Shown here: one piece after another, positions 2,291 through 31,120 of the stretch
Numbering within the stretch: position 1 is the first letter of the stretch
Layout of the letters: each line of letters starts with the position of its first letter
Translations under genes and position numbers: made by a program
The notes under the pieces: generated by a model
Seen by the model: the letters and a program-made list of their open reading frames with translations, nothing else
Database searches by the model: none
Told to the model about the DNA's origin: nothing
Source: Bacilli bacterium
GTDB lineage: Bacteria > Bacillota_I > Bacilli_A > RF39 > UBA660
Direction: 5' to 3'
DNA: 64,000 nt
NCBI GenBank assembly: GCA_017626405.1
Contig: JAGAIS010000005.1
Location: 4,086-68,085 of the forward strand

Positions 2291-4200
2291 TGAAATATTC
2301 AATTAGAAATGGATCAGTAACATTAAGTGGAAATACCATTCTTGAAGAAGTTGATTTTGAGGTTAATTCTCGCGAACACATTGCGATCGTTGGACCTAAT
2401 GGAGCCGGAAAGACAACCCTTTTAAATGCTATTATAAATCCCGAATTGTTTGATGAAGGAATAGGTGACGAAAAATTCAACATAACAAAAATAGGTGAAT
2501 TTAACATTGGCTTTTTGAAGCAAATTGAGTTTAAAGATGATCGTGAGTTATTGATTGATATTGTAAGGGAACCATTTAAAGAACTTATAAATATGGAGAA
2601 AAAAATTCAAAATTTAGTTGAAGAAATGAATACCAATAACTCTAATGAATTAATAAAAAAATACACGGATACAATAGAAAATTTTAAATTGTTAGGAGGT
2701 TACTCATATAAGAAAGAATATGAAGTAATGTTAAATAAATTTGGGTTTACAGAAGCCGATAAAGAAAAAGCTATTTCATCATTTAGTGGTGGTGAGAAAA
2801 CTAAAATTGCCTTTATCAAACTACTTTTATCTAAACCGGATTTATTAATACTAGATGAACCAACTAACCACTTAGATATTAAAACTATTGAATGGTTAGA
2901 AGAATACTTGGCAAATTATAAAGGTGCGATAATCATCGTTTCACATGATCGCATGTTTATCAACAATATTGCTAGCATTATTTACGATATCGATTATGGA
3001 AGAGTTATTAAATACAACGGTAATTACTCGTTCTTTGAAAAAACTAAGAAGGCAAATTATGAGAAGTTACTTCATGACTATGAAGCTCAACAAAGAGAAA
3101 TCAAAAGATTAACGTCTATATACGAAAGATTTAGAAATAAACCTACTAAAGCAAGTATGGCACTTTCAAAATTACACCAAGTTGAAAAGATGGAATTAAT
3201 TGACAAGCCAAATAAAATCGATATGAAGACATTTAAGACAAATCTTGACTCAATTGAGCAATCCGTAAAAAGAGTATTAGTAGCGAAAGATTTAGTAATA
3301 GGCTATGACAAACCACTAGCAAAATTGAATTTCGAAATAATGAGAGGTAAAAAAATAGGCATTATAGGTGCAAATGGAACAGGTAAATCAACTTTGTTAA
3401 AAACTCTTCATGGGGTAATAACTCCACTCGATGGAGAATTAAGTTATGGACTAAAGGTTCTTCCAGGCTACTTTGATCAATCATTAGAGTTTATTACTGA
3501 CTCATGTGTATTAACAGAAATGCGCGAATATAACAAGGAACTAACTGAATTGCAAGCACGAAGTGCACTTGGTTCATTTCTATTCAAAGGAGAAGATGTC
3601 TACAAAGACTTATCCATCCTTTCTGGTGGCGAAAAAGTCCGTCTTCAATTATGCAAGATACTCTATAATAAACCTAATTTTCTTATTTTAGATGAACCAA
3701 CAAATCACATGGATATTGCATCGAAAGAACATTTAGAGGATATCCTGACTGAATATAAGGGAACTATTATTTTTGTATCTCACGACCGATATTTTGTTGA
3801 AAAAATAGCTGATGAATTAATCGTATTTGAAGAATCCGGTGCAAGTTATTATCCATTTGGATATGGAGAGTATCTTGAAAAAATTAGAAAGAAACAACCT
3901 ATAGTTGAAACAAAGAAAGTTAAAAAAATGATAGAGAAAGCTAAAATAGTAGAAGACAAAAGAGAAAAGAAAGTAAGCCGCGAAAAAGAACTTCAAATAA
4001 TTGAAAATAATATTATTAAGCACGAATCTCGCATTGCTTCATTAAATCAAGAATTATTTTCAAGTGATGTCATAAATGATTTTGCAAAGATTAATAGTAT
4101 TCAATCAAAAATAGATTTATTGAATCAAGAATTAGCTGAATTAAATGACAATTGGGAAAAACTAACCGATGAAATATTAACCGAAAAAAATCAGGACTAA
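2290..4200 (+). CDS. ABC-F family ATPase
   Basis: Two ABC cassettes (GPNGAGKT, SGGEK, LDEPTNH; GANGTGKS, LSGGEK), no TM segments, C-terminal coiled coil. Confidence 0.93.
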   Translation: MKYSIRNGSVTLSGNTILEEVDFEVNSREHIAIVGPNGAGKTTLLNAIINPELFDEGIGDEKFNITKIGEFNIGFLKQIEFKDDRELLIDIVREPFKELINMEKKIQNLVEEMNTNNSNELIKKYTDTIENFKLLGGYSYKKEYEVMLNKFGFTEADKEKAISSFSGGEKTKIAFIKLLLSKPDLLILDEPTNHLDIKTIEWLEEYLANYKGAIIIVSHDRMFINNIASIIYDIDYGRVIKYNGNYSFFEKTKKANYEKLLHDYEAQQREIKRLTSIYERFRNKPTKASMALSKLHQVEKMELIDKPNKIDMKTFKTNLDSIEQSVKRVLVAKDLVIGYDKPLAKLNFEIMRGKKIGIIGANGTGKSTLLKTLHGVITPLDGELSYGLKVLPGYFDQSLEFITDSCVLTEMREYNKELTELQARSALGSFLFKGEDVYKDLSILSGGEKVRLQLCKILYNKPNFLILDEPTNHMDIASKEHLEDILTEYKGTIIFVSHDRYFVEKIADELIVFEESGASYYPFGYGEYLEKIRKKQPIVETKKVKKMIEKAKIVEDKREKKVSREKELQIIENNIIKHESRIASLNQELFSSDVINDFAKINSIQSKIDLLNQELAELNDNWEKLTDEILTEKNQD

Positions 4201-4445
4201 CAATCCTGATTTAATTTTTTGCACAATTTATCAACTTCAGTTTTATTAACATCTTCAACTTTATAGTATCCAATATTTACCATGTCTTGATATATTTCTT
4301 CTTGCATTTCGAGATTGTAATCAAGACCATCTAACATTGCTTTTCTAACATTCTTATTGCTAGATTCCACCACAGCATTGGTATAGAGCATAACAAGCGA
4401 TTTAGTAAGTGTTAAATAATTAGTTAGTTCCTCTTTTTCACTCAT
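4197..4445 (-). CDS. Coat F (CotF/YraD-like) spore protein
   Basis: 82 aa, Y.NAVVESSN..VR...QEEIYQDM...GYY pattern of the Coat_F domain. Confidence 0.75.
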   Translation of the reverse strand: MSEKEELTNYLTLTKSLVMLYTNAVVESSNKNVRKAMLDGLDYNLEMQEEIYQDMVNIGYYKVEDVNKTEVDKLCKKLNQDC

Positions 4446-9050: not shown

Positions 9051-9725
9051 ATGAGGAAATTTAAATCGAAAGCAAAAAGTAGAATTGAATATTTTATTAT
9101 TATAATTTTCACTCTCACATTTATTCAAATGTATTATTATAATAAATTAATATCAGTTAGCTTACTCGATATCAGTTCAACTAAACTAGAAGAAATAACA
9201 AATGTATATATAAAAAAAGACATAGTGCCAATGAATAGTGATATCAATAATTTATTAACTATTAATAGAAATTCAAAAGATGAAATTCTCTATGTAGATA
9301 TAAACACTGAAGAGGCAAATAAGATAATGGTAGATGTAGTAACAAAGATACAAAAAAGCATCAATAAAATAGAATTTGAAGACGATTTATTAAAAAAGCA
9401 TAACAACAATATTTATATGAAAGTCCCTTTAACTTTTAATAGTGGACCCCTGATATCATCTCTTGGTCCTAAGATTCCTATAAAACTTGATTTTTATGAA
9501 CAAGTTCTTGCTAGTATTGATACTGAAGTAACTAATTATGGAATTAATAATGCTTTAATTAAAATATACTTAACAATAGATCTTGAGCAAAAGATTTATA
9601 TACCATTTAAAAATGATAAATTTAAAAGATCTTATCGAGTTCTATTGAGTGCTAAAATGACTAATGGAACTGTACCAAGTTTTTTAGGCGGAACAATAAC
9701 AAATCATGAAACTTCATCTTCCTAA
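9051..9725 (+). CDS. yunB: sporulation protein YunB
   Basis: N-terminal TM; LGPKIPIK...YGINNALIKIY...GTVP motifs. Confidence 0.85.
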   Translation: MRKFKSKAKSRIEYFIIIIFTLTFIQMYYYNKLISVSLLDISSTKLEEITNVYIKKDIVPMNSDINNLLTINRNSKDEILYVDINTEEANKIMVDVVTKIQKSINKIEFEDDLLKKHNNNIYMKVPLTFNSGPLISSLGPKIPIKLDFYEQVLASIDTEVTNYGINNALIKIYLTIDLEQKIYIPFKNDKFKRSYRVLLSAKMTNGTVPSFLGGTITNHETSSS

Positions 9726-16771: not shown

Positions 16772-17515
16772 CTATACTTTGATTCGATTATATAGTTTCT
16801 CTAAATCAGTTTCTTGAATTTGGAATCCAGTGCCTCTATCTTGTATTTCACCTAAATGGTCTTCGTCTCTATAAATGCCAGCCTTGAAACATACTCTTAT
16901 AACTCCTTTTTCAATAAGAGTGATAAATTGTTCAAAATTTGTAAATTTGTAAAATTTTATTGCATAGTATTTGTAGTAGTCAACTCCTTTAATCTTATTT
17001 GGCCATGCTTCAATTAAAGCAAGTTTCTTCAACTTCTTTTCTAATTTTCCATTTAACAATTCAAAAGGCCAGTAGGTTATTCTTTCATAATCATTGAAAA
17101 ATCTATCGGTTATAACTAAATAAACTCTTTTTTCATTATAATCGACATCTAATTTAAATAAGTATCTATTTGCAACTATTTCGGAGTGATCTCCATAAGC
17201 TATAGCACTTAATACCTTAAACTGTTTAAATATCCTATCTGGATAGCCATATTTATCTCTCAATCTTTTAACTTCGAAATTTGTTTCACCTTTTGGTGCG
17301 CAATTAAAAAGAGTAATGTAACTTTTGCTATAACCTCTTTTTGTCTTTATTTCAATGCCTAAGTAATCTGGGGTATCATTGGAGTCTTCATCTTTACCAA
17401 GTAAATCTTCAAATGTTTTACCTATACCAGTAGTTCCCTTTCTAGAAGATCTAACATATCCCATATTTCTGATTCTTTCAAATTCTTTATTTAATAATCT
17501 AAATTCTTCGCTCAT
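16772..17515 (-). CDS. MvaI/BcnI family (MutH-like) PD-(D/E)xK endonuclease
   Basis: TGIGKTFEDLLG...PDYLGIEIKTKR...ITLF...YGYPD...DRGTGFQI. Confidence 0.85.
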   Translation of the reverse strand: MSEEFRLLNKEFERIRNMGYVRSSRKGTTGIGKTFEDLLGKDEDSNDTPDYLGIEIKTKRGYSKSYITLFNCAPKGETNFEVKRLRDKYGYPDRIFKQFKVLSAIAYGDHSEIVANRYLFKLDVDYNEKRVYLVITDRFFNDYERITYWPFELLNGKLEKKLKKLALIEAWPNKIKGVDYYKYYAIKFYKFTNFEQFITLIEKGVIRVCFKAGIYRDEDHLGEIQDRGTGFQIQETDLEKLYNRIKV

Positions 17516-20227: not shown

Positions 20228-20256
20228 TTGCTTATAATTTTATAACTTGGTATAAT
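20228..20256 (+). promoter_or_regulatory. sigma-A promoter of essC
   Basis: TTGCTT-N17-TATAAT with TG extension; GGGGAG SD downstream. Confidence 0.75.
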
Positions 20257-20283
20257 AAAATAAATAATAAGGGGAGTATTATT

Positions 20284-23200
20284 ATGATTTGTTATATATT
20301 AAGAGATGATAAACTGGATAAATTGCAATTGCCAGCAAAGGTTTCAGGTGTTTATTCTATTTTAAACAATGAAAATAAAATGATTACTAACATCGAAGCT
20401 GAAAATGACAAATGGGTGATTAAATCAAACGATGATATAGAGATTCAGGCTAACGGGCAAGTAGTTAAAGATGTTGAATTAGTTAGTTTTTGTTTGTATG
20501 TAATAAAAGAAGTTAAAAAGGAATTAACTACGAAAATAATATCTTTACCAACATATGATAATAATGTTGAATACTATATAAGTAAAAAAGATACGATTAC
20601 TATAGGTTCATCAAATGATTGTTCAATTGTTTATAATATACCTGCAGTTTCTAGCACTCATGTAACACTAAGTAAAAGTGGGAATCATTGGGTTGCAAAG
20701 ACGGAAAACAAAGGAGCTTATATTAATAACAAACCATTTAGAAATAAAAACATGTTTCATGGTGATTATATATTTTTATATGGGCTTAAGATAATAGTAA
20801 TCAATAATTATTTTATAATTAACAAACCAAATAATGCGTTATCTATTAACCCGGAATGTTTTGAAAAAAAGCAAATAGATAAGCAAGTAATTACATATGA
20901 AAAAGAAATCCCAGATGATACGCCTTTATATAATAAAAACCAATTGTTTTTTAAAGCACCAAGATTTAAAAGCGTTATAGAAAAAGAACGCGTTGTAATT
21001 GATACTCCACCCGAAAGAGAAGAAACTTCGACAGATCCGGCAATTTTACAGGTTGGTCCGCGTTTGACAATGGTAATTACATCGGCATATACATTATTTA
21101 ATACTCTTCAAAGCTATATGTTAGGTGAAACTACTTTCGAAAGATGTATTCCATCTATACTTGCAATTGTAACATTATTACTTTCATCTTTCTTTTGGCC
21201 AACTATAACAAGAAAATATCATGCTAGAAGGATGAAAAAAGAAAATATTAGAAGATATAAGAAATATCGAAAGTATTTAGAAAAGAAAAAGAATAAAATT
21301 GATGAGATTAAATCGCTACAAAAACAAATATTAATTGAAAATAATATTCCATTAGAAGAATGTCAATCAATAATTTACAATAGAAAGAGAAATTTATGGG
21401 AAAGAAATATTGATCATGATGATTTCTTGGAAGCAAAAATAGGAATAGGAAGAGTAGAGACACAAATTGATATTGAAGATCCTTCAGATCGCTTTACTAT
21501 TGAAGATAGTGATGTCTTACAGGATGCTTTAGATGAAATTTTAGCTGAAGCTAAATATATGGATGATTGTCCTGTCAATGTGTCGTTTATAAAAAAACAA
21601 GTAGTTGCCATAGTTGGAAATGAATTAATGACTAAGTATTTCGTTGATAGTTTATTCTTACAATTTATGACATTCCATGCTTATAATGATTTAAAGATAG
21701 TAACTATAACTAATAAGAAAAACGAATATTTATGGGAGTATTTAAAAATAATACCTCATTCATGGGATGGAGCAAAGGAAAATAGATACTTTGCAACTAC
21801 TGCTGAAGAAGCTGCAGAAATTAATACCGAATTAGAAAAGGTATTTGGAGATCGTCGATCAGATGATGAAACTGTTAAATTAGAAGAAAATGGCGAACAA
21901 GGTGAAGAAAGACCAAGATATTTCGATTATCGTCCATATTATTTAATTTTCTTGGATGATTTGGAAACTGGAAGAAATTTATCTGCAATAAAAAAAATAT
22001 TATCATATAGAACAAATTTAGGATTTTCAATAATAATTAGAAATAATCGTCTATCTAATTTGCCTAGTGAATGTACTACATTTATCAATGTCGATGGGGA
22101 AAATTCTGGATTGTTCGAAAGTGAACTAGCTTCATACAATCAAAAACAGTTTAATGCAGAACTAAACAAGTCGATAGATATGTATGGATGTGCTGAACAA
22201 CTTGCAAATATTCCAATGGTTAAGGACAAAGGTAAATACGAACTTCCTTCGAGTGTATCTTTCCTATCAATATATAAAGTGGGAAAAGTTGAACAATTAA
22301 ATTCACTTGAAAGGTGGAAAACTAATAATCCAGTAGCATCTTTAGCAGTACCTATTGGTATTAATCAAGATGGAGAGATTTTTAAAATGGATGCCCATGA
22401 AAAAGGATGGGGACCTCATGGATTAGTTGCAGGTATGACTGGTTCAGGTAAATCAGAATGGATCATTACATACATATTATCTTTAGCAGTTAACTTTCAC
22501 CCAGATGAAGTACAGTTCGTACTGATAGACTATAAGGGTGGAGGTCTTGCATTATCGTTTGAAAATAAAGAGATGGGTATTAAGTTGCCACATTTAGCGG
22601 GTACAATAACAAACCTTGATAAATCAGCAATAAACCGTGCATTGACTTCTATTGAAGCTGAATTAAAGAGAAGACAAAATCTATTTAATGAAGCGAGAGA
22701 GAAACTTCATGAATCAAGCATTAATATTTATAAATATCAACAATATTATCGTAAAGGTATGTTGGATGAACCTATGTCGCATCTATTTATAATTTCCGAT
22801 GAGTTTGCAGAGTTAAAGTCGCAAGAACCAGAATTTTTGGATCAACTTGTTTCGACAGCTCGTATAGGTCGTTCTCTAGGAGTTCACCTAATCTTGGCAA
22901 CACAAAAACCAAGTGGTGTAGTTAATGATCAAATTTGGTCGAACTCAAGATTCCACGTTTGTTTAAGAGTTCAAGATAAGAGCGATTCACAAGAGATGAT
23001 TAAGAGCACAGATGCAGCAATGTTAAAAACTACAGGTTCTTTCTATTTACAAGTAGGTTATAATGAATACTTCAGTTTGGGACAAAGTGCTTGGGCTGGA
23101 GCTAAGTACTATCCATCAGATATTGTTAAAACTGATGTAGATCAGTCTGTTCAGTATATTGATAACATGGGAAAAACAATAAATAGTTATGATGAAAACA

Positions 23201-24861
23201 CATTTAAAGAGAATGTTAGAAAAGAAGATAACGGAGAAGAATTATTAAATATTGTCTCTTACATTTCGAAAATTTCTGAAGGTGAACATATTGTTGGTAA
23301 GCAATTATGGTTGCCAAATATCCCAGAAGAGATTATGTTAGCAGATGTTAAAAAGAGGTATAACCATCAACCAAAGCCTTATGATTTTACAACAGTTATT
23401 GGTGAATATGACAATCCTGCTCTTCAAGAGCAAAATGTGTTTACTTATAATTTAAAAGAAAATACGGCAATATTTGGTGAAACTGGTTCAGGTAAGGAAA
23501 ATCTAATATCGACAATATTATGGTCTAGTATGACAGAACATACTCCAACAGAGATTAATTACTATATTATTGATTTAGGTTCAGAGACCTTGAGAATGTT
23601 TAGCAAGTTCCCTCATGTTGGCGAAGTAGCTTTCATTGAAAATTTTGATACCATAATTGGAATTCTTCAAATGATTGAAGAAGAAATTGAGCGCAGAAAA
23701 GATTTGTTCGCAGATTATAATGGTAGTTATGAAGGCTATTTAAAAGAGAGCGGAAAGGCATTGCCTCTTTGGACAATTGTAATTAATGCATTTGATATAT
23801 TTCAAGAGAATCTACCTAGATTAGTTGATGCTGTAAACAATATGTTTAGAGACGGAGTTAAATATGGAATTACTTTCATTGTATCAGTTTCTTCGCAACA
23901 AGCATTACGTTCAAAAGTTGCAGCATTCTTTAAAAATAAGATTGTTCTTCATCAACCTGATGATACTAATTATCGCTCAATATTAGGCTGTGATAAAAAG
24001 CTTATTCCTCAAAACGCATATAGTAGAGGAATTGCAATTATTAAAGATGATCTTTTCTGTGAATTCCAAGGAGCATATATAGCAGAAAAAGCAAATATAA
24101 ACTCTATTGTTAGAAAGAATGCTGATAATTTTGCTGCTTATTACAAAGTAAGAGCTAAGTCGTTACCTAAGATACCAGATACAGTTACAAGTGAAGAATT
24201 ATCCAAATATATTACGACATTAGATAAATTTCCTATTGGTTACAATTTCCACGAAAAAAACATTTGTACATTTGACATGTTGAAACAGAAAATGTTTGTT
24301 ATGTGTGTTGATAATTTTAAAGATACAATTAATTCAATATATGGAATTGTAAATATGTTATCTAAGTCTCCGGGTACTAAGGTTAGAGTACTAGACTTTG
24401 ATAATATATATAAGGGAACTAATATGGAAATTCAATATTTTAATGAAAAATTGGATGCAACAATATTAGCATTGAAGGGAGATCTTGAAAAACGTACAGA
24501 TAATCAAGATCAAGGTATTACTTTTGTATTAGGTGTAGGATTGTATAAGAATAAATTAAAAGAAGTAGGTACTCAATACTTTGTAGATTACATTAATGCA
24601 ATTAATGATGCTAAAAAATCAACAATTATCTTAGTAGATACTTATGAAAGAATGAAACGACTAAGAATCGAAACTTGGTTCAAAAGTGTTAATACAAGTT
24701 ATGGTATATGGCTAGGTAATAATATTTCTAATCAAAACTTATTCAGTGTTAAGTCAATTACAATGGAAGATCGCAAAATTGTATATGAGGGTCTAGGATT
24801 TGTTATAAATGATGCCGAATATATGATGATTAAGACAGTATTGGATGGTGAGGATAGTTAA
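20284..24861 (+). CDS. essC: type VII secretion ATPase EssC/YukB (FHA-TM-FtsK domains)
   Basis: FHA (ITIGSS..C.I....VS..H), two TMs, LWER...DFL, HGLVAGMTGSGKS, LIDYKGG, DEFAELK, ARIGRSLGVHLILATQKP, second P-loop GETGSGKE. Confidence 0.95.
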   Translation: MICYILRDDKLDKLQLPAKVSGVYSILNNENKMITNIEAENDKWVIKSNDDIEIQANGQVVKDVELVSFCLYVIKEVKKELTTKIISLPTYDNNVEYYISKKDTITIGSSNDCSIVYNIPAVSSTHVTLSKSGNHWVAKTENKGAYINNKPFRNKNMFHGDYIFLYGLKIIVINNYFIINKPNNALSINPECFEKKQIDKQVITYEKEIPDDTPLYNKNQLFFKAPRFKSVIEKERVVIDTPPEREETSTDPAILQVGPRLTMVITSAYTLFNTLQSYMLGETTFERCIPSILAIVTLLLSSFFWPTITRKYHARRMKKENIRRYKKYRKYLEKKKNKIDEIKSLQKQILIENNIPLEECQSIIYNRKRNLWERNIDHDDFLEAKIGIGRVETQIDIEDPSDRFTIEDSDVLQDALDEILAEAKYMDDCPVNVSFIKKQVVAIVGNELMTKYFVDSLFLQFMTFHAYNDLKIVTITNKKNEYLWEYLKIIPHSWDGAKENRYFATTAEEAAEINTELEKVFGDRRSDDETVKLEENGEQGEERPRYFDYRPYYLIFLDDLETGRNLSAIKKILSYRTNLGFSIIIRNNRLSNLPSECTTFINVDGENSGLFESELASYNQKQFNAELNKSIDMYGCAEQLANIPMVKDKGKYELPSSVSFLSIYKVGKVEQLNSLERWKTNNPVASLAVPIGINQDGEIFKMDAHEKGWGPHGLVAGMTGSGKSEWIITYILSLAVNFHPDEVQFVLIDYKGGGLALSFENKEMGIKLPHLAGTITNLDKSAINRALTSIEAELKRRQNLFNEAREKLHESSINIYKYQQYYRKGMLDEPMSHLFIISDEFAELKSQEPEFLDQLVSTARIGRSLGVHLILATQKPSGVVNDQIWSNSRFHVCLRVQDKSDSQEMIKSTDAAMLKTTGSFYLQVGYNEYFSLGQSAWAGAKYYPSDIVKTDVDQSVQYIDNMGKTINSYDENTFKENVRKEDNGEELLNIVSYISKISEGEHIVGKQLWLPNIPEEIMLADVKKRYNHQPKPYDFTTVIGEYDNPALQEQNVFTYNLKENTAIFGETGSGKENLISTILWSSMTEHTPTEINYYIIDLGSETLRMFSKFPHVGEVAFIENFDTIIGILQMIEEEIERRKDLFADYNGSYEGYLKESGKALPLWTIVINAFDIFQENLPRLVDAVNNMFRDGVKYGITFIVSVSSQQALRSKVAAFFKNKIVLHQPDDTNYRSILGCDKKLIPQNAYSRGIAIIKDDLFCEFQGAYIAEKANINSIVRKNADNFAAYYKVRAKSLPKIPDTVTSEELSKYITTLDKFPIGYNFHEKNICTFDMLKQKMFVMCVDNFKDTINSIYGIVNMLSKSPGTKVRVLDFDNIYKGTNMEIQYFNEKLDATILALKGDLEKRTDNQDQGITFVLGVGLYKNKLKEVGTQYFVDYINAINDAKKSTIILVDTYERMKRLRIETWFKSVNTSYGIWLGNNISNQNLFSVKSITMEDRKIVYEGLGFVINDAEYMMIKTVLDGEDS

Positions 24862-25115
24862 TGGACTATAAGGTTTTAGTAACGGTGTTTGTTCCGGAAA
24901 TAGATCAAAAATTTGAATTCTATATACCTGTAAATAGATATGTAGAACAAGTAATAACTATTATTAATCAAGCAATAAATAATATAGTATTTGACCAATA
25001 TCCAATAAAGGACAATCTTCAATTATGCAATAGAAGAACTGGTGAAATATATAACAATGGATTATATGTTAGAAATACCAATATTAAAAATGGTACACAG
25101 CTTGTATTGTTTTAA
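24861..25115 (+). CDS. YukD/EsaB ubiquitin-like T7SS protein
   Basis: 84 aa beta-grasp pattern ending IKNGTQLVLF; translationally coupled to essC (TAATG). Confidence 0.75.
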   Translation: MDYKVLVTVFVPEIDQKFEFYIPVNRYVEQVITIINQAINNIVFDQYPIKDNLQLCNRRTGEIYNNGLYVRNTNIKNGTQLVLF

Positions 25116-25170
25116 ATGTAAAGCATAAGTAAATACTATTTACAAATAATAGATAACAAATATATAATAA

Positions 25171-25218
25171 AGTTAGAGTAGTGAACGATATAAATTACTC
25201 TAGCTTTATTTTTGTTTT
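25171..25218 (+). terminator. terminator/attenuator-like hairpin before the WXG cassette
   Basis: AGTTAGAGTAGT pairs with ATTACTCTAGCT (12 bp including G-U), followed by TTATTTTTGTTTT. Confidence 0.55.
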
Positions 25219-25233
25219 GAAAGGAGAATCTAT

Positions 25234-25606
25234 AGTGCGCGATGGCGGAGTGTCTTTTGGTTCAGATGCAGGTCAAGGAATCAAAGAGATAGAGTTAGAA
25301 AATTTAATTTTAGAACTTAACAATGATGTTGATGATATTGGTTCTATTTTGAGAAATATCGAAAATATTGTATATGATGTTCAAGATTATATTAAGGGGC
25401 CTGTAGGTGATGCTTTAATAAGCAAATTAGATAATTATAAACGTCAATTTGATTTGTTAAAGTCTAATCTACTAAGCTATCCCGATGATTTACTTGGTTT
25501 GAAAATTAGTATGGATGAGAATGATAAAGCCGCAAGAGATGCAATGACAGATTTATCTCAAAACATTAATGTAGAAGCCAATAAGATTAACAATAAGGAG
25601 GTATAA
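25234..25606 (+). CDS. WXG100-like helical hairpin protein (degenerate IKG turn)
   Basis: AAGGAG SD before GTG 25234; helix-IKGPVGDA-helix; located in the T7SS locus. Confidence 0.6.
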
Positions 25607-25609
25607 TTT

Positions 25610-25927
25610 ATGGCACAATTAAATATCGAACAAGCTGGTATTGGTTATGATACTGTAGGTATATCAAATTTCTTAAATAAATTAAATTTAGATGTTATTG
25701 ATGACCTAATTTCAAAATTACATAACAATATGGGAACTTTAAGAGCAGCAGTTGATCAAGTATGGGCTGGTCAATCAGCAAATGCTTTTAAAGAAAAATT
25801 AGAGAGAGACTCTGAAACAATGATACAAACATTAGAAGGAATTAAGGATGACGTTAAAGCAGAATTTGCTCAAATTGCACAAAATGTTGATAATTATGAC
25901 TCTGCTATAGCTGAATCATTAAGATAA
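25610..25927 (+). CDS. WXG100 family protein (EsxA-like)
   Basis: 105 aa, central VWAGQSANAF, strong AAGGAGG SD, highly-expressed-type codon use. Confidence 0.85.
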   Translation: MAQLNIEQAGIGYDTVGISNFLNKLNLDVIDDLISKLHNNMGTLRAAVDQVWAGQSANAFKEKLERDSETMIQTLEGIKDDVKAEFAQIAQNVDNYDSAIAESLR

Positions 25928-25941
25928 GGAGGAAACGGAAT

Positions 25942-26442
25942 ATGTCTATACAAAATCTCGTAGGAAATGGAATAAGCGACCTATATCATATGGGAACTGG
26001 AACTCTTCAAGAAATCGGAAGTAGAATTGAATCACTATTAAGTGGTGCTACTGCAAGACTTGAATCACTTTGGGATGGTGGATTCGTTGGTATTGATACT
26101 GCAAACTACACTATCTTAACTGAAGCAATTGATGCTCATGTTAAATCTCTAGAAGATATAATTAATAACTTTAACACAGAAGCTTATATTGATGGAGCTT
26201 TAAAAGGACAAGCAAGAGATGAAGCTGTTTTATATGTTAAAGCAATTAAACAATTATTAGAAGCTTATGCTACTACTTATAGACAATTTAATATTGCATT
26301 AACTGGTGCTGCTCATGGTGAAAGAATTGAAGATTCAAGTATCATGGCTCAAATGATAGCTGGAGATCAAAGTAATGCTCAAGCTATTAATTCTGATGCT
26401 CAAGCAATTCAAACTGAAGCATCTCAAATTAGAATTGACTAA
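25942..26442 (+). CDS. extended WXG100-like protein
   Basis: 166 aa, helical; ALKGQARD turn, N-terminal extension with LWDGG; AAGGAGG SD. Confidence 0.6.
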   Translation: MSIQNLVGNGISDLYHMGTGTLQEIGSRIESLLSGATARLESLWDGGFVGIDTANYTILTEAIDAHVKSLEDIINNFNTEAYIDGALKGQARDEAVLYVKAIKQLLEAYATTYRQFNIALTGAAHGERIEDSSIMAQMIAGDQSNAQAINSDAQAIQTEASQIRID

Positions 26443-26478
26443 TAAATAATATTTTTTAAATAGAGGAGGGGTTTCAAC

Positions 26479-26835
26479 ATGGCAAGTATTCCAGAGTTGA
26501 AAAGACTATTAACAGATTTTGCAAATTATAAGATTTCTGTCAGTGTTACAGCAAGTTATATGATTAAATCTTCTAATTCACTTGGAAGTGTTAGTGAAAC
26601 TGCTAATAATAATTACAGTATCAACGATGATGGAAGTAATTTAGGGGAAGTTGCAAAATCATTAAAAGAAAGCTGTGCTGAAACTTCTAACTATTTAAAA
26701 AATACAGTTATTCCTGCTATAGATACTAAGATGGATGAGATAGAACAAGAAATTAAAAGATTAGAGGAAGAAGAAAGACGTCGTGAAGAAGCGGAAGCTG
26801 CAAGGCGATCATCTTTCAGCTCTTTTAGGTGGTAG
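26479..26835 (+). CDS. small helical T7SS accessory protein (DUF5082/Lap-like)
   Basis: 118 aa, YSIND turn, ID.K..EIE..I..LEEEERRR C-terminal coiled coil. Confidence 0.55.
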   Translation: MASIPELKRLLTDFANYKISVSVTASYMIKSSNSLGSVSETANNNYSINDDGSNLGEVAKSLKESCAETSNYLKNTVIPAIDTKMDEIEQEIKRLEEEERRREEAEAARRSSFSSFRW

Positions 26836-26838
26836 CTT

Positions 26839-27159
26839 ATGAACGAAAATTATATAGAGTGTGATACAGAAAAAATCCAAGATGCGGGATTAAAGATTTG
26901 TGATTATTTAGATGAATTGCAATCAAAAGTAGATAATTTTTTTAAGAAAATAGAGAGCATTCCAGTTACTGGTGAATGGACCGGAAAGAATGCTGAAGTA
27001 TACAGTGAAAAAGTATATAGAGATTTAAACATATATACAAAGTTTATTTCGAATATGAAAGATATAGCTGACGAAATGAAGAGATTTTCGGGAGATACAG
27101 AAGCCAAAGTAAAATCTTGCGAAAGTGAAGTTCAGGGTACTAATTCAAGATATTATTAA
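26839..27159 (+). CDS. WXG100 family protein
   Basis: 106 aa, central EWTGKNAEVY. Confidence 0.8.
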   Translation: MNENYIECDTEKIQDAGLKICDYLDELQSKVDNFFKKIESIPVTGEWTGKNAEVYSEKVYRDLNIYTKFISNMKDIADEMKRFSGDTEAKVKSCESEVQGTNSRYY

Positions 27160-27177
27160 GATGGTAGGTGAGATTAT

Positions 27178-28161
27178 ATGAAGTTAAATATTTCAAATTC
27201 AGGTATATATGACCCTATTAAGAACGATTTAGAAGATGCTATAACAAATCTTAATAATGCAAAATCTATTCTAACTAGTCCTCCAGCTTCTTTTAGTCAA
27301 AGTGGATATATGTCTAGTTTACCATCTAAAATTAATAACTTGATTAGAAAAGTTACTAATTTGAGCAATTCTGCTTTGCGAATTGATCAAAAATATAAAG
27401 ATTATATATTAGATAAGAAAACCAAATTTAATAGTATAGATGATTATACATTAAATGAGAGAATAGGTCTTAGTGATCAATTTCAAATGTCTAGTTCAAA
27501 GTACAATGTTAATAGTGAGATTATTATGAACGAAAGTGGTATGTTGGTATTTAAAGCAATTGCTAGCGCAACAGGTATTAAATCTGCTTTAGATCATGGA
27601 TCTAGTAATATAAAAGATAGCAATGAACAACCAAGTAAAGAAGAAAAGGCATATATTAAAGGAACTCCAGATACGGTTAGTATCGAAACTGACGAACCTA
27701 TAGATAATGTTCCAAAAGAACCGGTTATTGAAAATCCAACTCCATCAAATGGAAATGGTGATATTCCAGGTACTCATTCTCCAGGTACAATGGAACCTTC
27801 ATATCAAGCGCAAGCATATAATTTATCTCCTGAAGAGTATAAGGTTCTTTGTGCTACAGTGTATGCAGAAGCTGCAGAAGGAAATGAGTATACTTATTCT
27901 GATACTATGGGAGTTACTTCTTCAATACTTAATAGAGTTGAAGCCGGTAACTGGGGCGGTTCAAGTGTAACAGAGGTAGTATCTGCACCTAATCAGTTTG
28001 AAGGTTATGGATATCAAAACCAAAAGTTTTCTCGTGCTATGAATGATCCTAGTTGTATTTCGCCAGAAATGATGCAAGCTATAAATGATACTCTTGCTGG
28101 AAGAAGAAATACTGAAGGCTATAGTTTTTATGGAAATGGAACACATAATGCATTTAGATAG
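27178..28161 (+). CDS. putative T7SS substrate with C-terminal SleB-like (Hydrolase_2) cell-wall hydrolase
   Basis: No signal peptide; helical N-terminus, Pro-rich linker, LCATVYAEA.EG...GV.SSILNRV...SVTEVV.APNQFE...GTHNAF. Confidence 0.85.
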   Translation: MKLNISNSGIYDPIKNDLEDAITNLNNAKSILTSPPASFSQSGYMSSLPSKINNLIRKVTNLSNSALRIDQKYKDYILDKKTKFNSIDDYTLNERIGLSDQFQMSSSKYNVNSEIIMNESGMLVFKAIASATGIKSALDHGSSNIKDSNEQPSKEEKAYIKGTPDTVSIETDEPIDNVPKEPVIENPTPSNGNGDIPGTHSPGTMEPSYQAQAYNLSPEEYKVLCATVYAEAAEGNEYTYSDTMGVTSSILNRVEAGNWGGSSVTEVVSAPNQFEGYGYQNQKFSRAMNDPSCISPEMMQAINDTLAGRRNTEGYSFYGNGTHNAFR

Positions 28162-28190
28162 AAGAATAATTTAAAAAATTATTCTTTTTT
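28162..28190 (+). terminator. intrinsic terminator closing the T7SS operon
   Basis: AAGAATAATTT-aaa-AAATTATTCTT followed by T-run immediately after the stop. Confidence 0.65.
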
Positions 28191-28204: not shown

Positions 28205-28945
28205 ATGAGCATTAATATTTTAAATAGTAAAGTAATAGATGATGAATATGAGTTAAGAGAATTGGAAATAGATAGCGAAAGAATTGTTTCTATCATGTCT
28301 TCTAATTCCTATCAATCTCTTTCATATATGGATAATGAAAAAGTGTTTGAAATATATGATAGTTATCCCAAACTCTATGATATTCTTTCTAATCTAGGTG
28401 CCGTTAATTCAGTTTTAGTATTAGGTGGTGGGGGTTTTTCTTATCCCAAATACTATATTAGCCATTATTCTGATAAAACAATGGATGTTATAGAAATAAA
28501 TTCAAAACTAATAGACATTTCGTTTAAATATCTATACCTAGATAGATTGTTTGCTGAACACGATCCGAATCATAAGAGATTAAATATATATTGTACTGAT
28601 GCCTATGATTTTATTATTAAGACAAATAGGAAATATGATGGAGTATTCATTGATTTATATGTAGATAATGAGCCACTAGATATAATTTTTGAAGAGAGAT
28701 TCATATATAATATTAAAAGAATCCTAAATAAAGACAAGTTTTTATCCATAAACTATATTTTACATGAAGGAAGTTTAGATAAATTTTATAAGTTCAAAGA
28801 ATTGTTATCTAAATACTTTACTAATACTAAAATAATAACAACAGATTATAATGTAAATTTGAGTGATAAAAATATATTTATTTTATGTTCGGATTCTGAT
28901 ATTACTATTCCCGATACTTATAAATATGTTGAGTATGAAAGATAG
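28205..28945 (+). CDS. spermidine synthase-like class I SAM-binding protein
   Basis: VLVLGGGGFSYPKY, DVIEIN, TDAYDFI, KYDGVFIDLY. Confidence 0.75.
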   Translation: MSINILNSKVIDDEYELRELEIDSERIVSIMSSNSYQSLSYMDNEKVFEIYDSYPKLYDILSNLGAVNSVLVLGGGGFSYPKYYISHYSDKTMDVIEINSKLIDISFKYLYLDRLFAEHDPNHKRLNIYCTDAYDFIIKTNRKYDGVFIDLYVDNEPLDIIFEERFIYNIKRILNKDKFLSINYILHEGSLDKFYKFKELLSKYFTNTKIITTDYNVNLSDKNIFILCSDSDITIPDTYKYVEYER

Positions 28946-29017
28946 GTGGAGTAATCTCCACTTTTTTAATTGGATAAAAGTTGATATAATATAAATATAC
29001 AGTTTGGAGGGCTTCAA

Positions 29018-31120
29018 ATGATTCTTATTATTGCAGAAAAACCATCGCTTGCAAGAAACATTGTCAATGCAATTGGGAACATGAAAAACAATAATGGCTA
29101 TTACACTAATGACAAATATATTGTTACATATACTATTGGTCATTTGTTCACTCTAGCTGATATTGAAGACTATAGCGATACTCCAACTGATGGAAGATGG
29201 ACAATGGATAATATCCCTTGCTTTCCAACGCGATTTAAATTTAATTTAAAAAAAGCAGCAAACAAAAAAGTAGATCCAGGTATTTTAAAACAATATAATA
29301 TAATTGAAAGTTTAATAAATAGAGAAGACGTCGATACAATAGTAAATGCAGGTGATGCTGATCGTGAAGGAGAAGTAATAATTAGATTAATTGTCGATAA
29401 TGCACTGAAGTCAGAAAAGAAAAAGGTTAGGCTTTGGGTTCCTGATCAGACAGTAGAGACTATTAATGCAGGACTAAGTGATCTGAAGGATGAATCTAAT
29501 TATGATAATTTAGCAAATGAAGGATTAGCAAGAACTTACATTGATTGGCTTTATGGAGTAAATTTAACGAGATTTGCAACTTTAAAGACAGGTACTCTTT
29601 TAAGAGTTGGGAGGGTAATTATTCCAATAGTAAAAGCTATATATGATCGCGATATGGCAATAAGAAACTTCAAACCGGAAATATACTATGGTATTAATAG
29701 TAATGAGCTAACTAAGAATGAAGAAATTGAACTTAATAGCAAAGAAAAATTTGATAAGAAAGATTTAAAGAAAGCACAGGAATATTGTAATACATTAAAT
29801 AGTTTAGATGCTATAGTAATGGATAAAAAAGTAAAGAAAGATACTTTAAATCCAGGAAAATTATACTCTTTATCAAAATTGCAAAATTACTTAGGAAAAA
29901 AGTATAAGATGCCAATGGATAAGTCTTTATCAATAGTTCAAAAACTATATGAAAGTGGATATTTAACTTATCCTCGTACTAATTCTGAATACCTAGCAGT
30001 AGCAGAAAAAGATAAGATTAAAACTATTCTAAATAATATATCAAAGATTGGTTATCCAGTTAAATTTAAAGATAAGAAAACAATTTTTGATGACTCAAAA
30101 ATTGAATCACATTCAGCTTTGACTCCAACATATAAGATTCCTAAAAAAGAAAATTTAACTGAAGAAGAATTTTTAGTTTATCAAACTGTATTTAAAAGAT
30201 TTGTAGCAGTATTCTGCAGTGAGGATTGTACAGTAGAAAAGACTGAGATTAAGATTAAATGTGGTGATTTAGAAGAATTTACTTTAAAGGGAACAATCAT
30301 TATTAATCCAGGATGGACAAAGTTTGATGATACTTCTACTAAAGATAAAATATTGCCCAATTTAGAAATTGGAGAAAAGATAAATACTAATTTTAAACCA
30401 AAAGAAAAAGAGACAACACCTCCTAAGCACTATACTATTGAAACTTTAAATAATTATCTAAAGAATCCATTTAAAGAAGATAAGAAGGCATTGGAAGAAA
30501 ACCAAGATGAAGTGGATGATACTGAAGATTATAAGGCAATTTTTGAAGGATTAGAACTAGGTACTGAAGCAACAAGAACGGGAATTATTAAAAATGCTAT
30601 TACTTCAGAATATATTGCTCTAAATAAAGATGTCTATACAATCCAAAATCAGGGAATATATTTAATTGAATCTTTAAGTCAAATGGATATATCTATGGAT
30701 AAATATAAGACAAGTGAAATGGGTAAGGCATTAAAAAAAGTCTATCATGAAGAAATATCTGTAGATGACTCTATTAAGATTGCAATTGATGAAATTAGTG
30801 AAGTTTTTAAGAAAAAAGATAGTCCAATAGAAAGAGATAAAGATACTGGTTTTTTTGGTGATGTAATAGGCAAGTGTCCATTATGTGGCAGTGAAGTAGT
30901 AAAGAATAGATATGCTTACGGATGCAAAGATTATAAGAATTGTTCTTTTAAAATTAATACAGTTATCTGTAATCGAGTAATATCAAAAAAACATGCTGAA
31001 AGCTTATTGGAGAATGGCATTACGGCAAAAATAAATGGATTTGTTTCTAAAAATGGCAAATCTTTTGATGCCAAACTTAAACTTGATAAAGATAAAGTTA
31101 TTTTTGATTTTAGTGAGTAA
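29018..31120 (+). CDS. topB: DNA topoisomerase III
   Basis: IIAEKPS, AGDADREGE, LYESGYLTYPRT, LGTEATR, C-terminal CPLCG / GFVSKNGKSFDAKL repeat. Confidence 0.92.
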   Translation: MILIIAEKPSLARNIVNAIGNMKNNNGYYTNDKYIVTYTIGHLFTLADIEDYSDTPTDGRWTMDNIPCFPTRFKFNLKKAANKKVDPGILKQYNIIESLINREDVDTIVNAGDADREGEVIIRLIVDNALKSEKKKVRLWVPDQTVETINAGLSDLKDESNYDNLANEGLARTYIDWLYGVNLTRFATLKTGTLLRVGRVIIPIVKAIYDRDMAIRNFKPEIYYGINSNELTKNEEIELNSKEKFDKKDLKKAQEYCNTLNSLDAIVMDKKVKKDTLNPGKLYSLSKLQNYLGKKYKMPMDKSLSIVQKLYESGYLTYPRTNSEYLAVAEKDKIKTILNNISKIGYPVKFKDKKTIFDDSKIESHSALTPTYKIPKKENLTEEEFLVYQTVFKRFVAVFCSEDCTVEKTEIKIKCGDLEEFTLKGTIIINPGWTKFDDTSTKDKILPNLEIGEKINTNFKPKEKETTPPKHYTIETLNNYLKNPFKEDKKALEENQDEVDDTEDYKAIFEGLELGTEATRTGIIKNAITSEYIALNKDVYTIQNQGIYLIESLSQMDISMDKYKTSEMGKALKKVYHEEISVDDSIKIAIDEISEVFKKKDSPIERDKDTGFFGDVIGKCPLCGSEVVKNRYAYGCKDYKNCSFKINTVICNRVISKKHAESLLENGITAKINGFVSKNGKSFDAKLKLDKDKVIFDFSE

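Follow-up and report, generated by a model that had tools for sequence, protein, structure and literature searches.

Whether a type VII secretion system (T7SS) can dispense with EssA, EssB and EsaA, and whether a locus that seems to do so is a new kind of system, part of an ordinary one or a relic, are questions raised by an operon at positions 20,228 to 28,190 of a 64-kb stretch of DNA (64,000 nucleotides, hereafter the window) from contig JAGAIS010000005.1 of an uncultured Bacilli bacterium. A preliminary description of the window had presented this operon as a stripped-down and undescribed T7SS. On the evidence of its sequence, the locus is a real, intact and compact T7SS belonging to a clade that lacks EssB and EsaA, and we consider it probable that it operates as such, with the parts and roles proposed below; the concept of a T7SS without EssA, EssB and EsaA has already been published, and this lineage is a further variant of it. 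The genome holding the window amounts to 1.25 Mb in 11 contigs, is 88.7% complete and has a GC content of about 28%.

The operon consists of eight open reading frames (ORFs) on the + strand, namely, essC (20284-24861; 1,525 amino acids [aa]) and genes for proteins of 84, 141, 105, 166, 118, 106 and 327 aa (here p84, h141, h105, h166, h118, h106 and hyd327), in agreement with the layout given previously. The identification of the first gene likewise holds: its product, an FtsK/SpoIIIE-type T7SS ATPase, passes the T7SSb equivalog model TIGR03928 (T7_EssCb_Firm; 918.9 bits against a cutoff of 778.4) and matches PF01580 (1.3e-46), with an FHA match (PF00498, E of 1.6e-6) at residues 105 to 163, a transmembrane (TM) region at approximately residues 258 to 310, the Walker A motif GMTGSGKS (residue 717) and GETGSGKE (residue 1065). 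Judged by these matches, the sequence of EssC is of T7SSb type; its N terminus bears an FHA region, a hydrophobic segment anchors it in the membrane, and the first Walker A motif is intact. No other protein of the operon has a stretch of TM grade (maximum Kyte-Doolittle 19-residue mean of ≤1.11), so that essC is, as stated in the preliminary description, the only gene in the operon with a TM segment. That description was also right that essC is coupled to the gene for a ubiquitin-like protein, as the stop codon of the former and the start codon of the latter overlap in the sequence TAATG (24859-24863).

The coupled gene, p84 (24861..25115, +), encodes an 84-aa protein whose ubiquitin-like (Ubl), YukD-type identity is borne out by fold only. 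Its AlphaFold model, built from a 24-sequence alignment, is a beta-grasp with a pLDDT (predicted local distance difference test score) of 94.4, and within the best 50 of 223 Foldseek matches (E of ≤0.001), the highest TM-scores belong to the Ubl domain of EccD5, a protein of the mycobacterial ESX-5 complex (7np7/7npt, TMq of 0.80/0.79), with ubiquitin, ISG15 and SUMO as the next structural matches. The protein has no C-terminal Gly-Gly. Based on this model, p84 is probably a partner of EssC of the TsxB/EsaB/YukD type. The family has 128 relatives among 5.8 billion proteins, and none of the 120 listed relatives has a Pfam domain or a name beyond “hypothetical protein.”

Two of the small proteins encoded between p84 and the hydrolase are, by motif and profile comparison, of the WXG100 type. 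In h105 (25610..25927, +), W52-x-G54 is invariant in 8 sequences, and in h106 (26839..27159, +), W47-x-G49 is invariant in 10. Compared by hhalign with the EsxA of a control genome from another family (G026, described below), h105 reaches a probability of 91% (E of 1.1e-6) and h106 one of 52% (E of 1.4e-4); the control EsxA retrieves h105 by phmmer (E of 5.4e-4), and the hidden Markov models (HMMs) of h105 and h106 cross-match each other, as would suit paralogue-like partners. The other three are h141 (25181..25606, +; GTG start), whose relatives measure 99 to 138 aa and which keeps its place in the gene order at 7 loci (one of them labelled Saccharibacteria), h166 (25942..26442, +), a candidate Lap-like partner or effector kept in 6 loci, and h118 (26479..26835, +), which has a charged C-terminal tail and is kept in 9 loci. 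None of the three has a recognized family (no Pfam family for h141 and none above threshold for h166 or h118).

The claim on which the locus chiefly depends, that it has no EssA, EssB or EsaA, fares differently for the three proteins. Neither the models of EssB/YukC (PF10140 and TIGR03926) nor the N-terminal model of EsaA (TIGR03929) have any match in the source genome. When the EsaA, EssA, EsaB and EssB of G026 were used as phmmer queries against the 4,436 ORFs of the source genome, nothing better than an E of 0.1 was returned (best values, 0.13 for EssB and 0.34 for EsaA), while the EssC and EsxA of the same control found their counterparts (E of 8e-129 and 5e-4). Among 41 related genomes, 25 of them from the family of the window, EssB and the EsaA N-terminal region are each found in 0 of the 25 family members; G026 is the only genome of the 41 in which EssB is found, and there EsaA (57 bits with the N-terminal model), EssB and EssC are adjacent. 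The EsaA test rests on that N-terminal model and on the one control protein. In a broader sample of the class (250 scored genomes), EssC exceeds its cutoff in 24, and EssB is present next to essC in all 13 that belong to other families (E of ≤8.6e-32) and in none of the 11 from family f1. The absence of EssB and EsaA from the genome and the family, as far as these models and their positive controls detect them, is therefore upheld. For EssA, the models (PF10661 and TIGR03927) give only sub-threshold matches to TM segments, in the source genome and, among the relatives, in EssC-positive and EssC-negative genomes alike.

These same searches bear on the possibility that the locus is part of an ordinary T7SSb whose EssB, EsaA and EssA lie elsewhere, were not assembled or have diverged past detection by HMMs. 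EssC does pass the T7SSb model, and several further observations speak for such a split or hidden system and weigh against a compact one: the source genome is 88.7% complete, so a gene could sit in the missing part; the EssA of the classic control locus itself escapes both EssA models, so that they carry no weight on whether EssA is absent; Pfam names none of the EssA, EsaB and EsaA of G026 at an E of 1e-3; and small single-pass proteins of differing families adjoin essC in several genera and could be unrecognized analogues of EssA or EssB. Set against them are the repetition of the EssB- and EsaA-less pattern in more than 30 other genomes, the partitioning of EssB, the best-detected component, into 13 of 13 genomes outside family f1, 0 of 11 inside it and 0 of 25 in the sample of relatives, the EsaA N-terminal model, which recognizes the control but no family genome, the empty phmmer searches with the control's own proteins and the long, fully supported branch that separates the EssC clades. 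We regard an ordinary T7SSb as very unlikely.

That branch is seen in a phylogeny of 46 full-length EssC sequences (the split or partial loci L037, L040, L056 and L071, duplicate loci and second copies were left out), in which 12 EssB-linked rows are separated from 34 EssB-less rows with 100% support in the Shimodaira-Hasegawa-like approximate likelihood ratio test. A distinct EssB-less clade of EssC among related metagenome-assembled genomes, a prospect already raised in the preliminary description, is thus fully supported. With the addition of five rows, including two short, FHA-less ATPases as the outgroup, the EssB-linked sequences form one clade (14 rows, 100%), with the reservation that long-branch warnings apply to this tree. 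The EssC of a genome from another family (G364), in which EssB is not found, falls outside the main EssB-less group, and the tree therefore leaves undecided whether the lack of EssB is a loss or an older state. The term “stripped-down,” which implies loss, is not sustained, as the polarity is not settled even with an outgroup.

Other EssB-less arrangements were encountered in the course of these comparisons. In a 2.2-Mb genome of another family, a locus with a GC content of 0.45 (L120:7090-12566) contains an EssB-less essC, a Ubl gene and relatives of h106 and h141, and its EssC lies outside the main clade. Several genomes of the family of the window carry a second, divergent EssB-less essC with its own Ubl gene of 83 to 93 aa and different neighbours (L032:5320-10162, L033:9292-14134 and L098 to L101) and would thus have two such systems per genome. 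In another family of the class, two loci (L121:3802-10588 and L122:7364-14140) hold a different, T7SS-like set that opens with two WXG-like genes of 99 aa. Next come, in this order, a single-pass protein (709 aa), an ATPase that lacks FHA (about 1,273 aa) and a gene of 83 aa, which matches the Ubl profile weakly in L121 (E of 1.8e-4) and not at all in L122 at an E of 0.001; EssB is not found in the genomes carrying them. The phylum-level search covered the small-genome families of one class, a sample that includes no Bacillus- or Paenibacillus-type genomes.

What holds the EssB-less loci together is the pairing of EssC with the Ubl protein, whose gene stands beside essC in 38 of 39 such loci (the exception being a contig of 6 kb), and they share no other family throughout. 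The exact gene order of the window (Ubl, the 141, 105, 166, 118 and 106 families, and a cargo that has the common helical N-terminal domain) recurs in five other Bacilli loci, and order is kept across loci whose EssCs are 40 to 57% identical. Within the genus, essC is complete or split in 11 of 22 genomes, with a fragment in one more. Gut metagenomes of pigs and sheep, from about 11 studies, contain the locus. Two DNA runs (X9 and X11) match the window only as short pieces of 90 to 95% identity. The same module, rearranged, is present in three loci from genomes that their submitters labelled Candidatus Saccharibacteria or Nanosyncoccus (0.7 to 0.8 Mb, on contigs of 102 to 330 kb). There the module has a GC content of 0.40 to 0.44, matching most of the flanks, and the EssCs are 45% identical to that of the window and nest, with 100% support, beside one Bacilli group inside the EssB-less clade, for which transfer from Bacilli appears to be the simplest reading. 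Of these modules, L043:10001-18700 includes six of the small-protein families, and L044:10001-17500 and L045:10001-17500 include three each; all are located beside type IV secretion system (T4SS) pilin genes. A multi-TM protein of 1,173 to 1,230 aa next to them was considered as an EsaA analogue and rejected, given that its TM segments lie in the N-terminal third and its neighbours are T4SS pilin genes. In a limited search of the literature, no T7SS encoded by members of the Saccharibacteria or Patescibacteria came to light.

As a concept, such a system is not undescribed. Garrett, Higginson & Palmer (2024; PMC11217815) define eight subtypes, T7SSc to T7SSj, that have no EssA, EssB or EsaA and in which the ATPase, the Ubl protein and WXG100 proteins are universal or almost so, which goes against the novelty claimed in the preliminary description. 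The question becomes whether the locus belongs to one of these subtypes, most plausibly a simple one, and is thus a system already described. It has the same core of TsxA (WXG100), TsxB (Ubl) and TsxC (ATPase) with no EssB or EsaA detected, it has Lap-like small genes beside the cargo, as the published subtypes have small WXG-like partners, and pairs of WXG100 proteins are known from some subtypes, among them T7SSg, which is called “relatively simple” and has two WXG100 proteins, a Ubl protein, an ATPase and one more protein (PMC11217815). However, the additional proteins that mark T7SSc to T7SSj (the kinase TsxD, the PPM phosphatase TsxF, the separate FHA/DUF6382 protein TsxJ, the vWA protein TscE, the DUF5050 propeller TsgL, the AAA+ ATPase TsfV and the Ig-rich TsdI) were found neither among 12 proteins of the locus (Pfam, E up to 0.1) nor among the other 54 ORFs of the window (E up to 1e-5); EspG-like and TshM-like proteins, which PMC11217815 defines by fold, were compared here by Pfam only. 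Moreover, EssC has an FHA region, unlike the ATPases of T7SSc, T7SSg and T7SSh, and passes the T7SSb equivalog model, and the neighbouring genes encode a zincin-like ectoprotein and a DUF5684/zinc-ribbon protein, neither of which is mentioned in the accessible parts of that paper. Its systems were drawn from RefSeq, whereas the hosts in the present case are uncultured, small-genome gut bacteria known from metagenome-assembled genomes. Taken together, these differences are not decisive. Overall, judged by gene content, the lineage appears to match no T7SSc to T7SSj gene set within the 64-kb window, and we think it unlikely that it is one of the published subtypes.

The resemblance to T7SSb (the Ess system of Staphylococcus aureus and the Yuk system of Bacillus subtilis) lies in the FHA-bearing EssC equivalog, the adjacent small Ubl protein, the WXG100-type proteins and a cargo whose helical N-terminal domain is accompanied by small helical partner genes. 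The differences are that EssB and EsaA are not found, that the EssCs form a separate clade, that the Ubl and WXG proteins have diverged beyond recognition by Pfam, that there are two WXG100-type genes in place of one esxA and that the cargo's N-terminal domain, about 100 aa long and WXG-like, has no LXG match.

What the system would secrete is best seen in hyd327 (27178..28161, +), in which a helical N-terminal targeting domain of about 100 aa and a Pro/Glu-rich linker precede a Hydrolase_2 domain of the SleB/CwlJ type (residues 241 to 321; PF07486, 35.3 bits against a cutoff of 27), so that the SleB-domain protein reported previously is confirmed above the Pfam cutoff. The YAEA...ILNR...QF...RN motifs of the domain are kept in 6 sequences, and its conserved Glu is presumably the catalytic residue; against PDB sequences, hyd327 gives no significant match, a solved SleB included. 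The N terminus clusters with the 100- to 150-aa small helical proteins of other loci and shows no match to LXG (PF04740) at an E of up to 0.1. There is no hydrophobic N-terminal signal, nor is there a Sec-type signal in any of 15 long members of the family. Hydrolase_2 domains also occur in the cargo of relatives, and with three loci whose EssCs are 41 to 43% identical to that of the window, whose Ubl proteins are 32 to 36% identical and whose targeting domains are 22 to 28% identical, hyd327 shares 64 to 78% identity in the catalytic domain, a disparity indicating that the targeting domain follows the machine, whereas the enzyme is retained or swapped. In a local HMM scan of the genome, each component turned up once and further substrates were not found, which makes the hydrolase its only enzymatic cargo.

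The arrangement of a large cargo behind several genes for small helical proteins recalls the LXG/Lap loci of T7SSb, where such proteins bind the helical domain of the cargo and form the export signal with it (PMC9600955). It departs from them in having no match to LXG, DUF3130 or DUF3958, no conserved immunity-like gene and a cargo domain that is conserved in the genus and not polymorphic. A functional precedent comes from the S. aureus T7SSb, whose dedicated wall hydrolase, EssH, is genetically tied to it and provides a model in which local cutting of the wall enables secretion across a thick peptidoglycan layer (PMC13059805). EssH has a CHAP domain and is described as needed for the assembly across the wall of EsaA, which is not found here (PMC13059805); hyd327 is of the SleB/CwlJ type and, having a T7SS-type helical N-terminal domain and no Sec-type signal, would itself be a T7SS substrate.

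Against whose wall the enzyme is directed is a matter on which the evidence is more evenly spread. One view, plausible if not quite probable, is that it cuts the wall of its own producer, as an EssH-like opening or remodelling enzyme for a system without a wall-spanning EsaA. The other, which we hold more doubtfully, keeps the machinery unchanged and has the hydrolase cut the wall of a neighbour, as an interbacterial weapon or a tool for breaching the wall of a partner cell. In favour of a neighbour as the target, most known T7SSb cargo proteins with helical N-terminal domains are antibacterial (PMC11217815), and the producer's genome is small (1.25 Mb). The three Saccharibacteria-labelled genomes also contain the module, and Saccharibacteria are described as dwelling on the surfaces of their bacterial hosts (PMC13622651). 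But no gene 3′ of the hydrolase is conserved (it is methyltransferase-like in two loci and encodes a prolyl-tRNA synthetase in three others), and no conserved immunity-like gene follows it in the six Hydrolase_2-bearing loci examined, an absence that points to a wall-opening role at least as much as to attack or attachment. The catalytic domain is, furthermore, conserved and not polymorphic, and the genome has four genes of the penicillin-binding-protein type (with transpeptidase domains), implying that the producer has a wall and that an unguarded general wall hydrolase would endanger both it and its kin. The lack of a conserved following gene, the retention of the catalytic domain, the walled producer, the missing EsaA and the EssH precedent make the own-wall role slightly the likelier of the two, while the arrays in relatives that bear CW_7 or LysM domains, together with the module in episymbionts, keep the interbacterial reading alive.

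A wall-less producer was considered and rejected on account of the same four transpeptidase-domain genes. The sole match to the MraY model (G000, on the contig labelled C5, 19279-20145) reaches 81.5 bits against a cutoff of 192, at odds with those genes; MraY may lie in the missing 11% of the genome or be divergent. In three loci of relatives (L051:16324-20835, L053:12327-20477 and L058:17134-18495), runs of two or three long proteins share the helical N-terminal domain and have unannotated C termini, several with the CW_7 peptidoglycan-binding repeat, and no intervening small genes were seen. Sporulation and wall genes elsewhere in the window encode a GH25 lysozyme-family protein (458-1675, −), a Coat F domain protein (4197-4445, −) and YunB (9051-9725, +), and a SleB-type cargo in a possible spore former raises a possible link to cortex lysis.

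The signals for transcription do not establish the single promoter proposed in the preliminary description. Upstream of essC, a promoter-like region whose function is putative (20228..20283, +) can be read directly from the sequence, with TTGCTT (20228-20233), a 17-nt spacer, an extended −10 element, TGgTATAAT (20248-20256), and a strong ribosome-binding site, AAGGGGAG (20269-20276). A promoter-like element thus precedes essC as claimed, but it is absent from the top sites of a consensus scan, and a stronger site is situated inside the operon, between the 84-aa and 141-aa genes: TTTACA-18-TATAAT (25139..25168, +), with 11 of 12 consensus positions, is the best + strand site of the region, by consensus match only. 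The proposed terminator has a similar standing, in that an AT-rich hairpin followed by a T-run is visible at 28163..28190 (+) but is not called by a terminator scanner that needs three G-C pairs. RNA-library contigs 99 to 100% identical to the window, from two pig-gut metatranscriptome runs, cover 25193-26509, that is, only the three genes just downstream of the internal site; they would fit a WXG block strongly expressed from that site but do not prove transcription. No such contigs cover essC, which is not evidence of silence.

A further reading is that the locus has ceased to function, or is decaying, and survives as a remnant within an accessory island. Its patchy occurrence (in 11 genomes of the 22 in the genus, with a fragment in one more) and its position between a restriction endonuclease gene and a topoisomerase III gene would suit such a remnant. 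Yet all eight ORFs are intact, more than 150 EssC columns, including Walker A, are invariant in an alignment of 30 sequences, gene order persists where EssCs are only 40 to 57% identical, and the RNA-library contigs match the WXG block; we consider decay highly improbable.

In the working system that we favour, multimers of EssC would form both the membrane channel and the motor. The Ubl protein p84 would bind EssC and nucleate assembly, much as YukD does on YukB in B. subtilis, with no EssB bridge; YukD is reported to bind the channel protein YukB and to bridge it to YukC (Oka et al.; PMC12637312), and this binding supports the role suggested for p84, here without YukC. The WXG proteins h105 and h106 would constitute an EsxA-like pair, and h141, h166 and h118, as Lap-like partners, would join the helical N-terminal domain of the hydrolase in a composite export signal. 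The hydrolase would then be exported independently of Sec and cut peptidoglycan outside the membrane.

To the weaknesses noted above in connection with EssA and the completeness of the genome, others must be added on the same side. The identity of p84 has no counterpart in sequence, since Pfam (including YukD, PF08817) and NCBIfam give no match, hhalign of the family against the EsaB of the control genome yields 0.1% (no sequence similarity), and its profile finds nothing significant among PDB sequences; nor is there a YukD entry within the best 50 of the 223 Foldseek matches. Both h105 (19.5 bits) and h106 (20.9 bits) fall under the 27.3-bit cutoff of the Pfam WXG100 model (PF06013), while h141, h166 and h118 are Lap-like partners, and helical, by inference only and as candidates. 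The RNA-library contigs derive from a single study and may include DNA. Finally, in relatives the long family members stand in arrays of two or three, carry CW_7 or LysM domains and differ in their C termini, which looks more like polymorphic cargo and fits an interbacterial role.

Upstream of essC, on the opposite strand, are two genes for membrane proteins that might be taken for the missing parts. The nearer encodes C5 (18624..20162, −), a divergent 512-aa protein whose conserved cytoplasmic N-terminal domain (about 85 aa) is followed by a hydrophobic anchor with a lipobox-like LVGC at its end. A disordered linker then leads to an ectodomain in which HExxH...E (H313, E314, H317 and E348) is invariant in 14 sequences. 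The protein has no Pfam family, and its profile finds nothing significant among PDB sequences. The model (pLDDT of 70.5) retrieves almost exclusively zincins by VIA-align (M1 aminopeptidase catalytic domains with Z scores of 8.6 and 8.0, lethal factor with 6.8 and thermolysin with 5.3) and, weakly, a collagenase by Foldseek (E of 3.6e-3), from which the ectodomain is predicted to be zincin-like. The second gene encodes C4 (17613..18560, −), a 315-aa protein in which DUF5684 (PF18936, 33.1 bits), with two or three TM segments, is followed by an acidic linker, the motif AIAFGG and, at the C terminus, a zinc ribbon of the form CxxC...CPGCG, an architecture that is widespread in Bacillota.

In the genus, full-length C4 is found in exactly the 11 EssC-positive genomes of the 22 and C5 in 9 of those 11, and both shift position relative to essC from genome to genome. 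The preliminary description was correct that no match to EssB or EsaA lies nearby but missed two divergent membrane proteins that co-occur with essC genus-wide, if not family-wide. As missing core subunits, C4 and C5 were rejected, the link dissolving beyond the genus (in the class sample, C4 is full-length only in G000, C5 is near-full-length in 3 of 11 EssC-positive f1 genomes, and partial matches turn up in EssC-negative genomes as well), nor are they universal parts, being absent from the Saccharibacteria-labelled genomes and from two further module-bearing Bacilli genomes (C5 as judged by locus content). A complex prediction for EssC residues 1 to 330, the Ubl protein and C5 residues 1 to 112 returned a score of 0.00, telling neither way. 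We treat C4 and C5 as lineage-specific accessories. MycP, a core subunit of the mycobacterial T7SSa, is a subtilisin held in the membrane by a C-terminal anchor. Like MycP, C5 is membrane-anchored, extracytoplasmic, protease-like and linked to a T7SS ATPase, for which a functional analogy is possible; it differs in being zincin-like, in its N-terminal anchor and in its restriction to part of the clade.

Two genes upstream of the locus lies a gene for a restriction endonuclease of the MvaI/BcnI family (16772-17515, −; E of 3e-44), which is syntenic in five relatives. Directly after the hydrolase, and only here and in the closest relative (G003), is a 246-aa spermidine-synthase-like gene of the methyltransferase fold (28205-28945, +) with its own G+C-richer terminator-like hairpin (28944-28963). 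A topoisomerase III-type gene with C-terminal zinc-ribbon repeats (29018-31120, +) bounds the locus downstream in six genomes, and this boundary, taken with the patchy distribution in the genus, suggests an accessory island.

A bolder proposal, which we advance tentatively and think rather doubtful, is that EssC and p84 are a self-sufficient translocon, having no further conserved membrane subunit, and the smallest T7SS gene set yet seen, and that the compact module, together with its WXG and helical partner genes, moved horizontally from small-genome gut Bacilli into Saccharibacteria, as the first T7SS of the Patescibacteria (candidate phyla radiation), opening peptidoglycan at cell-cell contacts with wall-active cargo. 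If EssC and the Ubl protein suffice, this would be the simplest naturally occurring T7SS on which to attempt reconstitution and structural studies and would bear on what forms the T7SSb channel and on what EssB, EsaA and EssA add to it. The finding would gain weight from confirmation either of that sufficiency or of the Saccharibacteria copies. As it stands, the p84 family exposes a blind spot of current annotation, the RefSeq-built catalogue of T7SS subtypes is extended into uncultured small-genome gut bacteria, and the presence of the module in three independent Saccharibacteria-labelled genomes suggests that episymbionts can acquire T7SS modules from other phyla.

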